DNA from: Squalus acanthias
Lineage: Eukaryota
Reading direction: 5' to 3'
NCBI GenBank assembly: GCA_030390025.1
Contig: JASTWF010000034.1
Span: 2,046,001-2,110,000 of the forward strand
DNA length: 64,000 nt
The notes under the pieces are model-generated. The model was given only the letters and a program-made list of their open reading frames with translations. It had not been told where the DNA came from and did no database searches. This document shows positions 28,273 through 31,760 of this stretch, piece by piece (position 1 is the stretch's first letter; each line of letters starts with the position of its first letter). Both the position numbers and the translations under genes were made by a program.

Positions 28273-28887
28273 TTGAATACTGTTGAGGGGGACGACTTAC
28301 CAGTGGTAAGCCATGGTGACCGGATCTCCGGCGCTTGGTCCGTCCCTGTGGCTCAGAAGGGAAGGGGGGAGAGCAGGAGAGCAATAGTTATTGGGGACTC
28401 AATAGTCAGAGGGACAGATAGGAGGTTCTGTGGCAGCAAAAGAGACTCACGGATGGTATGTTGCCTCCCGGGTGCCAGGGTCCGTGACGTCTCGGACCGT
28501 GTTTTCAGAATCCTCAAAGGGGAGGGGGAACAATCACAAGTCGTGGTACACATCGGTACCAACGACACAGGTAGGAGAAGGGACGGGGATTTAAAACAGG
28601 AATTTAGGGAGCTAGGTTGGAAGTTGAGAGCCAGTACAAACCATGTTGTAATTTCTGGTTTGTTGCCGGTGCCACGTGCTAGCGAGTTGAGGAACAGGGA
28701 GAGAGTGCAGATAAACACGTGGCTGCAGGGATGGTGTAGCGGGGAGGGTTTCAGTTATGTGGATAATTGGAGCACATTCTGGGGAAGGTGGGACCTGTAC
28801 AAACAGGACGGTTTGCACCTGAACCAGAGGGGCGCCAATATCCTGGGAGGGAAATTTGCTACGGCTCTTCGGGGGGGTTTAAACTAA
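28273..28887 (+). CDS. CR1 ORF1 C-terminal SGNH/GDSL-like esterase domain (partial)
   Basis: IVIGDSIVRG, HIGTND and DGLHLN blocks typical of the CR1 ORF1 esterase; ends GGLN*. Confidence 0.88.
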   Translation: MNTVEGDDLPVVSHGDRISGAWSVPVAQKGRGESRRAIVIGDSIVRGTDRRFCGSKRDSRMVCCLPGARVRDVSDRVFRILKGEGEQSQVVVHIGTNDTGRRRDGDLKQEFRELGWKLRASTNHVVISGLLPVPRASELRNRERVQINTWLQGWCSGEGFSYVDNWSTFWGRWDLYKQDGLHLNQRGANILGGKFATALRGGLN

Positions 28888-31760
28888 TTTGTCAGGGGGA
28901 TGGGAAAAAGGGCTGTAGTCCAGGAGCCAGTGGTGAGTGTAGGGAGGTACTGAGGAGGGTATCAAGGTCGCACGAATGTACCGGCAGACAGGAAGATTGC
29001 TTGAAGTGTGTCTACTTCAATGCAAGGAGCATCCGGAATAAGGTAGGAGAACTTGGAGCGTGGATTGGTACTTGGGACTACGATGTGGTGGCCATTACGG
29101 AGACATGGTTAGAACAGGGACAGGAATGGTTGTTGGAAGTTCCGGGGTATAGATGTTTCAGTAAGAGTAGGGAAGGTGGTAAGAAAGGTGGAGGAGCAGC
29201 ATTGTTAATCAAGGATAGTTTAACAGCGGCAGAAAGGCAGTTCGAGGGGGATCTGCCGTCTGAGGTAATATGGGCGGAAGTTAGAAATAGGAAAGGAGCG
29301 GTCACGTTGTTAGGAGTTTTCTACAGGCCCCCAAATAGTAATAGAGATGTGGAGGAAGAAATTGCAAAGCAGATTATGAATAGGTGTGGAGGTCACAGAG
29401 TAGTTGTCATGGGTGACTTCAACTTTCCAAATATTGATTGGAACCTTTTTCGGTCAAACAGTTCGGATGGGATAGTTTTTGCACAGTGTGTGCAGGAGGG
29501 TTTCCTGACACAATATGTGGATAGGCCGACAAGAGCTGGGGCCACGTTGGATTTGGTACTGGGTAATGAACCGGGCCAAGTGTTTGATTTGTATGTGGGA
29601 GAGCACTTTGGAGATAGTGACCACAATTCGGTAACTTTCACTATTGCAATGGAGAGGGATAGGGCCATACGGCAGGGCAGGGTTTATAATTGGGGGAGGG
29701 GTAATTATGATGCGATTAGGCAAGAATTAGGGAGTATAAGATGGGAACAGAAACTATCAGGGAAAGGCACAAACGAAAAGTGGAGCTTTTTCATGGAGCA
29801 ATTACTGCGTGTCCTTGATAGGTATGTCCCTGTCAGGCAGGGAGGAAATGGCCGAGTGAGAGAACCATGGTTCACAAAAGAGGTTGAATGTCTAGTCAAG
29901 AGGAAAAAGGAAGCGTATGTAAGGATGAGAAAACAAGGTTCAGTTGGGTCGATTGAGAGGTACAAGGTAGCAAGGAATGAGCTAAAAAAAGAGCTTAGGA
30001 GAGCTAGGAGGGGGCATGAGAAGTCCTTGGCGGGTCGGATCAAGAAAAACCCCAAGGCCTTTTACTCTTATGTGAGAAATAAAAGAATGACCAGGGTGAG
30101 GGTAGGGCCGGTCAAGGACAGTAGTGGGAACTTGTGCATGGAGTCAGAAGAAATAGGAGAGGTGATGAATGAATACTTTTCGTCAGTGTTCACCGAGGAG
30201 AGGGGCCATGTTCTTGAGGATGAGAGTGTGATAAAGGTGGATAGGCTGGAGGTGGTAGATGTTCTGAGGGAAGATGTTTTAGCAATTTTGAAGAACCTGA
30301 GGGTCGATAAGTCCCCTGGGCCAGATGGGATATATCCTAGGATTCTTTGGGAGGCAAGGGAGGAGATTGCAGAGCCTCTGGCTTTGATGTTTGGGTCCTC
30401 ACTGTCCACGGGAATGGTGCCAGAGGACTGCAGAGTGGCGAATGTTGTTCCTCTCTTCAAGAAAGGAAATAGGAATGACCCTGGTAATAATAGGCCGGTT
30501 AGTCTTACTTCGGTGGTTGGTAAGATAATGGAAAAGGTCCTGAGGGATAGGGTTTATGACCATTTGGAAAGGGGCAACTTAATCAGGGATAGTCAACACG
30601 GATTCGTGAAGGGTAAGTCTTGCCTAACAAATTTGATTTAATTCTTTGAGGAGGTAACTAAGTGTGTAGATGAAGGTAGAGCAGTTGATGTCGGAAACAT
30701 GGATTTTAGTAAGGCGTTTGATAAGGTTCCCCATGGTCGGCTCATGAAGAAAGTAAGGAGTTGTGGGATAGAGGGAAATTTGGCCGATTGGAAAAGTAAC
30801 TGGCTATCTCATAGAAGGCAGAGGGTGGTGGTGGATGGAACATTTTCGGACTGGAGACCAGTTACCAGCGGTGTGCCACAGGGGTCGGTGCTGGGTCCTC
30901 TGCTGTTTGTGATTTTTATCAATGACTTGGAGGAGGGGACTGAAGGGTGGATCAGTAAATTTGCTGATGACACCAAGATTGGTGGAGCAGTGGATGAGGT
31001 GGAGGGCTGTTGTCGGCTGCAAAGAGACATTGATAGGATGCAGAGCTGGGCCGAAAAATGGCAGATGGAATTTAACCCTGATAAGTGCGAGGTGATTCAT
31101 TTTGGTAGGGCAAATTTGAATAAGGATTACAGGGTCAACGGCAGGGTTCTGAGGAACGTGGAGGAGCAGAGGGATCTGGGGGTTCATATCCACAGATCTC
31201 TGAAGGTTGCCACTCAAGTGGACAGAGCAGTAAAGAAGGCCTATGGTGTGTTGGCGTTTATTAACAGAGGGTTTGAGTTTAAGAACCGTGAGGTTATGCT
31301 GCAACTGTACAGGACCTTGGTGAGACCACATTTGGAATATTGTGTGCAGTTCTGGTCACCTCACTATAGGAAGGACGTAGAAGCATTGGAAAGAGTGCAA
31401 AGGAGATTTACCAGGATGCTGCCTGGTTTGGGGGGGAGGTGTTATGAGGAAAGATTGAGGGAGTTGGGGCTTTTCTCTTTAGAGCGGAGGAGGATGAGAG
31501 GCGACTTAATAGAGGTTTATAAGATGATGAGGGGGATAGATAGAGTGGATGTTCAGAGACTATTTCCTCGGGTAGAGGCAGCTGTTACAAGGGGGCATAA
31601 CTATAAGGTGCATGGGGGGAGATAAAGAAGGGATGTCCGAGGTAGATTCTTTACTCAGAGAGTGGTTGGGGTGTGGAATGGACTGCCTGCTGTGATAGTG
31701 GAGTCGGACACTTTAGGAACTTTGAAGCGGTTATTGGATAAGCACATGGAGCACACCAGA
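28878..31760 (+). pseudogene. CR1 ORF2 (APE endonuclease + reverse transcriptase), two nonsense changes and no frameshift
   Basis: YFNARSIRNK, ITETWL, GDFNFP, SDHN, DFSKAFDKVPH, GVPQGSVLGP, KFADDTK; TAA at 30639-30641 and 31623-31625, with the same frame on both sides. Confidence 0.9.

Follow-up and report, generated by a model that had tools for sequence, protein, structure and literature searches.

Two CR1 elements in the Squalus acanthias window

We analyzed a stretch of 64,000 nucleotides of the Squalus acanthias genome (contig JASTWF010000034.1, positions 2,046,001 to 2,110,000; hereafter the window), in which a young, 5′-truncated copy of a CR1 long interspersed nuclear element (LINE), element A, is nested in the reverse transcriptase region of an older, minus-strand CR1, element B. 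Our subject is the junction between the two open reading frames (ORFs) of these elements, whose sequence points to programmed −1 ribosomal frameshifting. The genome carrying the window is 3.7 Gb in size, and the closest named homologues come from sharks and rays. Both elements combine an ORF1 that encodes an SGNH esterase (PF13472), grouping with shark homologues at 99/90 support, with an ORF2 of the canonical CR1 type, in which an APE endonuclease and a reverse transcriptase were found. Kinship of ORF1 to bird, turtle and crocodilian proteins, together with a short-repeat 3′ tail, suggests their assignment to CR1. Since the ORF2 of element A contains in-frame stops at 30639 and 31623, this copy is dead; so is element B, and the signal described here is a property of the families. 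A natural copy (L196) gives the full family ORF1 length of 308 amino acids.

ORF1 of element A ends GGT TTA AAC TAA (28876–28887), placing the heptamer U_UUA_AAC in the X_XXY_YYZ phase of ORF1 immediately ahead of the stop. Coronaviruses use this heptamer as a −1 slip site. The −1 frame stays open over 28767–30641 and reads FKLICQGDG from the first base of the heptamer, and its first ATG lies well beyond the NARS motif of the endonuclease at 29019. An earlier note on this DNA had reported this ending, its phase and the open −1 frame, and all three were borne out. The features of both elements are given in Table 1.

Table 1. Coordinates of CR1 features in the window
Feature	Position	Strand	Remarks
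Element A, 5′-truncated young CR1 LINE copy	28254..31862	+	homology to longer family copy starts 28254, 98.7% identical
Element A ORF1, 3′ part, SGNH/GDSL esterase domain, ends Gly-Leu-Asn-stop	28254..28887	+	PF13472, E 4e-13
Slippery heptamer U_UUA_AAC, ORF1 phase	28878..28884	+	
ORF1 stop codon adjoining 3′ end of heptamer	28885..28887	+	
G-rich motif (five G, two bases, three G) after 10-base spacer, candidate stimulator	28895..28904	+	
Open −1-frame linker, 47 codons, no Met, heptamer to endonuclease Asn	28878..29018	+	
Element A ORF2, endonuclease and reverse transcriptase coding region	29019..31622	+	PF03372, PF14529, PF00078; first ATG 29376
Element B ORF1, zinc-finger-like N-terminus, esterase, decayed	33607..34569	-	start ATG 34569
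Element B heptamer (33606-33600) and TAA (33599-33597)	33597..33606	-	
Element B G-rich motif, same 10-base spacing	33580..33589	-	one G to A change in copy

The heptamer is fixed in phase across divergent lineages

For the tblastn search that found ORF1 3′ ends, the last 14 residues of each query were removed; one query (P0114, an internal fragment ending in QLN) produced false anchors and was left out. This located 195 ORF1 ends, 192 of them with enough downstream sequence (165 from the same genome and 27 from metagenomes). TTTAAAC was present at 149 of the 165 own-genome ends and 19 of the 27 metagenome ends, in phase at 121 and 18 respectively, and 115 of 128 own-genome copies and 7 of 7 metagenome copies had the endonuclease in the slipped frame. 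The metagenome copies placed in the tree group with named bird proteins and are called bird-type below.

We additionally chose 85 copies by geometry: ORF1 had to be open to its end and to stop where expected, and the endonuclease motif had to lie in the −1 frame, whereas the letters of the heptamer played no part in the choice. TTTAAAC stands directly before the ORF1 stop in 83 of these 85, the stop itself being TAA in 70, TAG in 10 and TGA in 5. The heptamer is found in all 16 lineages (under 80% linker identity; 12 own-genome, 4 bird-type), between which ORF1 C-terminal identity has a median of 36%. Conservation of the heptamer, of its phase and of the openness of the −1 frame, the checks set beforehand, thus holds across lineages whose ORF1 ends are down to 23% identical. 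All 30 loci closest to element A share its junction in phase. At the 6629 other codon positions of these elements, TTTAAAC is never found in phase and canonical heptamers of any kind number 21, so that a junction of the element A type is not a product of chance.

Some copies depart from this arrangement. A third CR1 junction in the window (1077–1200) and a similar copy nearby have TTTCAAC in place of TTTAAAC, and another copy has TTTGAAC (loci L091:5621 and L081); these copies are probably decayed or locally duplicated. In a divergent, decayed lineage (L266; G000:C1148:38967-42626, minus strand), the heptamer is followed by one Lys codon and then the stop, with a G-run at +9, an arrangement suggesting that the adjacent stop may not be essential.

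Constraint lies on the RNA

TTA makes up 12 of the 130 Leu codons (9%) and AAC 25 of the 65 Asn codons (38%) in the same ORF1s, and the codon before TTA ends in T in all 16 lineages, whether it specifies Gly, Ala, Ser, Cys, Asp or Thr, versus a mean expectation of 0.23. Since rare synonymous codons are fixed, the constraint lies on the RNA, and a test on codon backgrounds found nucleotide conservation at the slip site beyond what the protein needs. At the protein level, the residue preceding Leu-Asn is one without a U-ending codon in 4 of 138 cases, versus 50 and 43 of 138 at the two preceding positions, with buried positions scoring equally low.

The amino acids themselves are also conserved. 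A DGxH-like motif lies near the end of 134 of 216 ORF1 homologues, and 120 of those 134 end in Leu-Asn; the named proteins with this ending come from sharks, rays, coelacanth, a bony fish, frogs, turtles, lizards, a snake, an alligator and birds. Leu-Asn closes a conserved helix, at a constant distance of 26 residues from the DGxH motif, as would be expected if the heptamer were a by-product of protein constraint, with ORF1 needing its terminal Leu-Asn, ORF2 needing an N-terminal Phe-Lys-Leu and starting in some other way, and the two constrained overlapping frames fixing the same bases. Phe-Lys-Leu must be translated to matter, however, yet the −1 frame upstream of the heptamer has no Met in any of the 16 lineages and a stop 3–11 codons upstream in 12 of them, often just 3–6 codons away, so that a frameshift remains as the way into Phe-Lys-Leu. 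Moreover, the Phe codon at the heptamer is TTT, the rarer one in ORF2 (10 of 37), and distant relatives end in GN or KN. An origin in protein constraint is extremely unlikely in our judgment.

The linker is open and has no conserved start codon

From the heptamer to the endonuclease, the −1 frame runs through a linker of 39–71 codons that is open in 80 of the 85 geometry-chosen copies and diverged in sequence (median identity score 0.32). In the representatives of the 16 lineages, which were picked with preference for open linkers, the other two frames contain 75 and 63 stops over 876 codons. The upstream stops, combined with the lack of any upstream Met, bracket the point of entry into the −1 frame. 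The earlier note had called ORF2 AUG-less, which applies to 3 of the 16 lineages, element A among them, where no Met precedes the endonuclease motif; the other 13 do have one. Across lineages, no conserved in-frame AUG for ORF2 was found.

ORF2 could also be reached by termination at the ORF1 stop and reinitiation at a nearby AUG or other codon, a mechanism described for SART1 (UAAUG) and proposed for mammalian L1 (PMC3708506, PMC5009743). Among 29 sequences, comprising the 16 lineage representatives and 13 bird-type copies chosen for an in-phase heptamer, 10 have an ATG at −1 codons 4–6, no more than three codons after Phe-Lys-Leu, and these are mostly bird-type. However, their sisters carry Ile, Thr, Lys, Ala, Asn or Ser at that codon, and no conserved start codon of the SART1 or calicivirus type was found at or near the stop. 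The upstream UGGGA motif has no conserved place, being absent in 9 of 29 and otherwise following protein-coding positions. Reinitiation, which would further have to do without a Met before the endonuclease motif in three lineages, leaves the fixed codons of the heptamer unexplained. We consider it an unlikely explanation, though it may serve as a second route in some families. One shark lineage (L176–L184) has a TAATG stop–start overlap on top of the slip site, such that both frameshifting and reinitiation would give translation in the ORF2 frame.

A G-rich motif follows at fixed spacing without detectable structure

Downstream of the heptamer, G occupies positions +11 to +15 in 26–27 of the 29 sequences and +18 to +20 in 24–27, whereas +4 to +9 are variable and conservation drops after +20. 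In the ORF2 frame the G-run forms Gly codons, for which GGG is used in 23 of 24 and 21 of 24 cases, versus 45 of 144 (31%) elsewhere, and we therefore read the run as an RNA motif and as a likely stimulator of the slip. Of the G-rich stimulator proposed in the earlier note, the conserved primary-sequence motif at fixed spacing stands, but neither a fold nor a canonical quadruplex was found. Across five window settings, none of the 29 sequences had a downstream fold with z below −2 (z was 0.25 for the window copy), consensus folding of the 16 lineages returned 0 consensus pairs, and the junction region had no match in Rfam. A stem–loop or pseudoknot 5–9 bases downstream was not seen; the folders used do not model pseudoknots, but no stable stems appeared either. 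In a search for a distant partner of the G-run from −300 to +1400 bases, a range beyond which lie the 3′ untranslated region and most of the reverse transcriptase, the best partners fell at no common place. A quadruplex was rejected as a conserved feature, with the canonical pattern in 0 of 29 sequences, a long-loop form in 1 and a two-tier form in 13. What is conserved about 10 bases downstream is an unstructured motif, as at the arterivirus type of site.

The same bases could instead belong to a splice or RNA-processing signal (a branch-point-like CTAAY and an AG before the G-run) joining an upstream AUG to ORF2, or to a palindrome acting at the DNA level: in most sequences an AG lies before the G-run or at its start (with A at +10 in 21 of 29), and GTTTAAAC is self-complementary. 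There is, however, no pyrimidine tract, and the distance from branch point to AG is about 8 bases, which is too short for splicing. The AG is missing in several lineages that keep both heptamer and G-run, and many sequences have a G or C just ahead of the heptamer, which breaks the symmetry of the palindrome. No data set containing the junction is recorded as RNA. Contigs from four runs guessed to be RNA, which cannot show expression, bridge the junction with no joint ending at the G-run, a weak argument against splicing. Overall, a processing or DNA-level signal appears very unlikely.

Element B and other features of the window

On the minus strand, the earlier note had described the same arrangement in element B. 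The heptamer, TAA, G-rich motif and a frame reading FKLTWQRDG are present, but this copy is out of ORF1 phase: a lengthened G-run upstream of the heptamer shifts the phase, and ORF1 stops inside the heptamer. The −1 frame had been described as free of Met, yet it contains two ATGs, one upstream at 33645, which arose with the same indel, and one inside the endonuclease at 33405. Calling the two elements unrelated was likewise an overstatement, as their ORF1 ends align at about 74–77% DNA identity. Among the 30 loci closest to element B, a set skewed toward copies that share its long G-run, the heptamer is in phase in 7, in one or the other of the remaining phases in 14 and 4, and absent from 5; relatives of element B found by protein search are mostly in phase.

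In some copies related to family B, among them L218, L219 and L221 (G000 C3400 and C3), the G-run upstream of the heptamer is one base longer, which puts ORF1 and ORF2 in a single frame. The resulting open frames reach 1280–1290 codons and provide natural size markers for the predicted fusion. A spreading subfamily of such fused copies is not supported, as they lie one G-run base from their sisters and are outnumbered by copies in the other broken phase (7 versus 21).

Long tandem-repeat arrays occupy about 6000–25000, 34800–35500, 36000–36900 and 40000–40900 of the window. One tandem array in the window is a repeated reverse transcriptase-motif fragment of a LINE, with recurring GVPQGSVLG frames.

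Distant relatives and possible use of other canonical slip sites

Of 150 representatives at 50% identity, the 94 with the DGxH-like motif near the end divide into 50 ending in LN, 9 in GN, 2 in KN and 33 with other endings. Gln stands before GN in 8 of 9 and before LN in 0 of 50. At the amino-acid level, QGN ends fit G_GGA_AAC (CAG GGA AAC) and xKN ends (n = 2) fit A_AAA_AAC, so that distant relatives look as though they exchange canonical slip sites. One clade of 18 distant proteins has QGN, SGN and SKN ends alongside FLN ends, and in another distant clade xKN lies some codons ahead of the stop in 8 of 13. Two distant proteins (P0228 and P0242) run from ORF1 into the endonuclease, with a junction that reads FKL and then Gly-Gly. 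A search for longer proteins gave 11 matches, mostly bird gene models and of limited weight.

For DNA of the distant families, scans of viral contigs gave nothing useful, prokaryote contigs only bacterial esterases and plasmids nothing, and distant queries run against the elements' own genome led back to the usual families. The ends of some other distant ORF1s contain RFF, SFL and GFL (P0310, P0334 and P0344), which would fit U_UUU_UUY or U_UUU_UUA slip sites. Three vertebrate CR1 ORF1 esterases are filed under Pseudomonas, Proteus and Klebsiella (P0008, P0059 and P0152), reflecting host-DNA contamination of bacterial records.

Interpretation and proposed mechanism

The signal at the CR1 ORF1–ORF2 junction is real and deeply conserved. 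From what is seen directly, namely the junction sequence, its phase, the conservation at the RNA level, the open linker and the absence of a conserved start, we infer frameshifting itself: the data are best explained, and very probably correctly so, by programmed −1 ribosomal frameshifting that yields CR1 ORF2 as an ORF1–ORF2 fusion. Sequence conservation thus supports the gag-pol-like reading of the earlier note.

In the mechanism that we propose, most ribosomes would stop and release the ORF1 protein, while a minority that pause with UUA AAC occupied by Leu and Asn tRNAs would slip back by one base and read through the variable linker into the endonuclease and reverse transcriptase. The rate of slipping would set the ratio of ORF1 protein to enzyme, as in gag-pol. 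More tentatively, the pause may come from the adjacent stop and the unstructured G-rich motif, the latter most likely by binding a protein or contacting the ribosome, and less likely by way of a stem–loop or pseudoknot.

Several observations weigh against frameshifting. When stretches were picked by position alone, just 4 of the 12 junctions proved to be intact and in phase, with 3 carrying the heptamer out of phase and 5 lacking it, which is expected of decayed copies yet is no clean sweep. The lineages share ancestry, so that counts of lineages and copies are not counts of independent events. The 13 lineages with a Met in the linker (chance expectation 10.6) have it at scattered distances, and the early ATG codons, mostly of bird-type sequences, have to be counted here as well. 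The exchange of heptamers is read from amino acids and not from codons, and the GN proteins form one clade. Finally, with the usual structural stimulator missing, the efficiency of frameshifting could be low.

A bolder proposal goes further. The CR1 enzyme may have been a Gag-Pol-like ORF1–ORF2 fusion since before the split of sharks and birds, made by a structure-free −1 slip that a protein (a host G-run binder or the ORF1 protein) switches on at the G-rich motif 10 bases downstream. This would mirror the C-rich system of arteriviruses and be the first protein-activated frameshift of a transposon, with distant relatives swapping three canonical slip sites. Taken as a whole, we regard this proposal as possible but doubtful.

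Significance and relation to known systems

How ORF2 is translated from the single RNA of a LINE is still debated, and the answers so far have been reinitiation in SART1 and L1. CR1 is the main retrotransposon of most vertebrates (PMC13343379) and in chicken accounts for about 12% of the genome (PMC11835228). If the frameshift is true, annotated starts of CR1 ORF2 are wrong, the CR1 enzyme, about 1280 residues long, is a fusion of esterase, endonuclease and reverse transcriptase, and the ORF1/ORF2 junction, where the signal spans under 30 bases, has to be retained in CR1 assays; a structure-free G-rich stimulator would then be a new kind of recoding signal. No report of CR1 frameshifting was found in the literature searched, which did not extend to the 1997–2001 chicken and turtle CR1 papers, Repbase and Dfam notes or supplements. 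In the main text of PMC13343379, the terms frameshift, overlap, start codon, translation, slippery and fusion do not occur; CR1 has no match in the searched portion of PMC5009743, and 'frameshift' is absent from those of PMC3905857, PMC4316615 and PMC4120745. We would thus have a known mechanism at a place for which no report was found, together with an unusual structure-free G-rich element, and its novelty is provisional.

The elements described here resemble the canonical, vertebrate-wide CR1, with its esterase ORF1 and an ORF2 of APE endonuclease and reverse transcriptase (PMC13343379). Recoding and AUG-independent translation have been listed for other non-LTR elements, with frameshifting in HeT-A and AUG-independent ORF2 translation in L1 (PMC5009743). 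A close parallel is found in TRE5-A and TRE3-A, two APE-type non-LTR retrotransposons of Dictyostelium whose ORF2 is said to need a −1 frameshift for its translation (PMC5911963). Unlike CR1, these belong to another clade and host and have another ORF1, and the passage gives no heptamer or stimulator. The way in which LINEs translate ORF2 is described as unclear, with SART1 using UAAUG coupling (PMC3708506). SART1 and mammalian L1 share with CR1 a bicistronic LINE RNA that needs ORF2 at a low level, but they yield free ORF2 protein by reinitiation, whereas CR1 has no conserved start codon and a fixed slip site.

In its layout, the CR1 junction is like those of coronavirus 1a/1b and retroviral gag-pol, where an X_XXY_YYZ heptamer ends the first ORF and the polymerase lies in the −1 frame; these sites use a pseudoknot or stem–loop 5–9 bases downstream (PMC5009743), of which CR1 conserves none. 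On mammalian ribosomes, U_UUA_AAC, G_GGA_AAC and A_AAA_AAC are among the most shift-prone heptamers (PMC5009743). A site of the CR1 kind, with no downstream structure and a short low-complexity motif after a 10-base spacer, is known from the nsp2 −2/−1 signal of an arterivirus, porcine reproductive and respiratory syndrome virus (PRRSV), in which a C-rich motif is bound by protein (PMC4937337). The PRRSV motif binds viral nsp1beta and poly(C)-binding proteins and works with another slip site, mainly in the −2 direction, whereas the CR1 motif is G-rich and a role for protein is conjectural. Given the same 10-base spacing as in PRRSV, a bound protein or a contact with the ribosome would by analogy be the likeliest stimulator in CR1.

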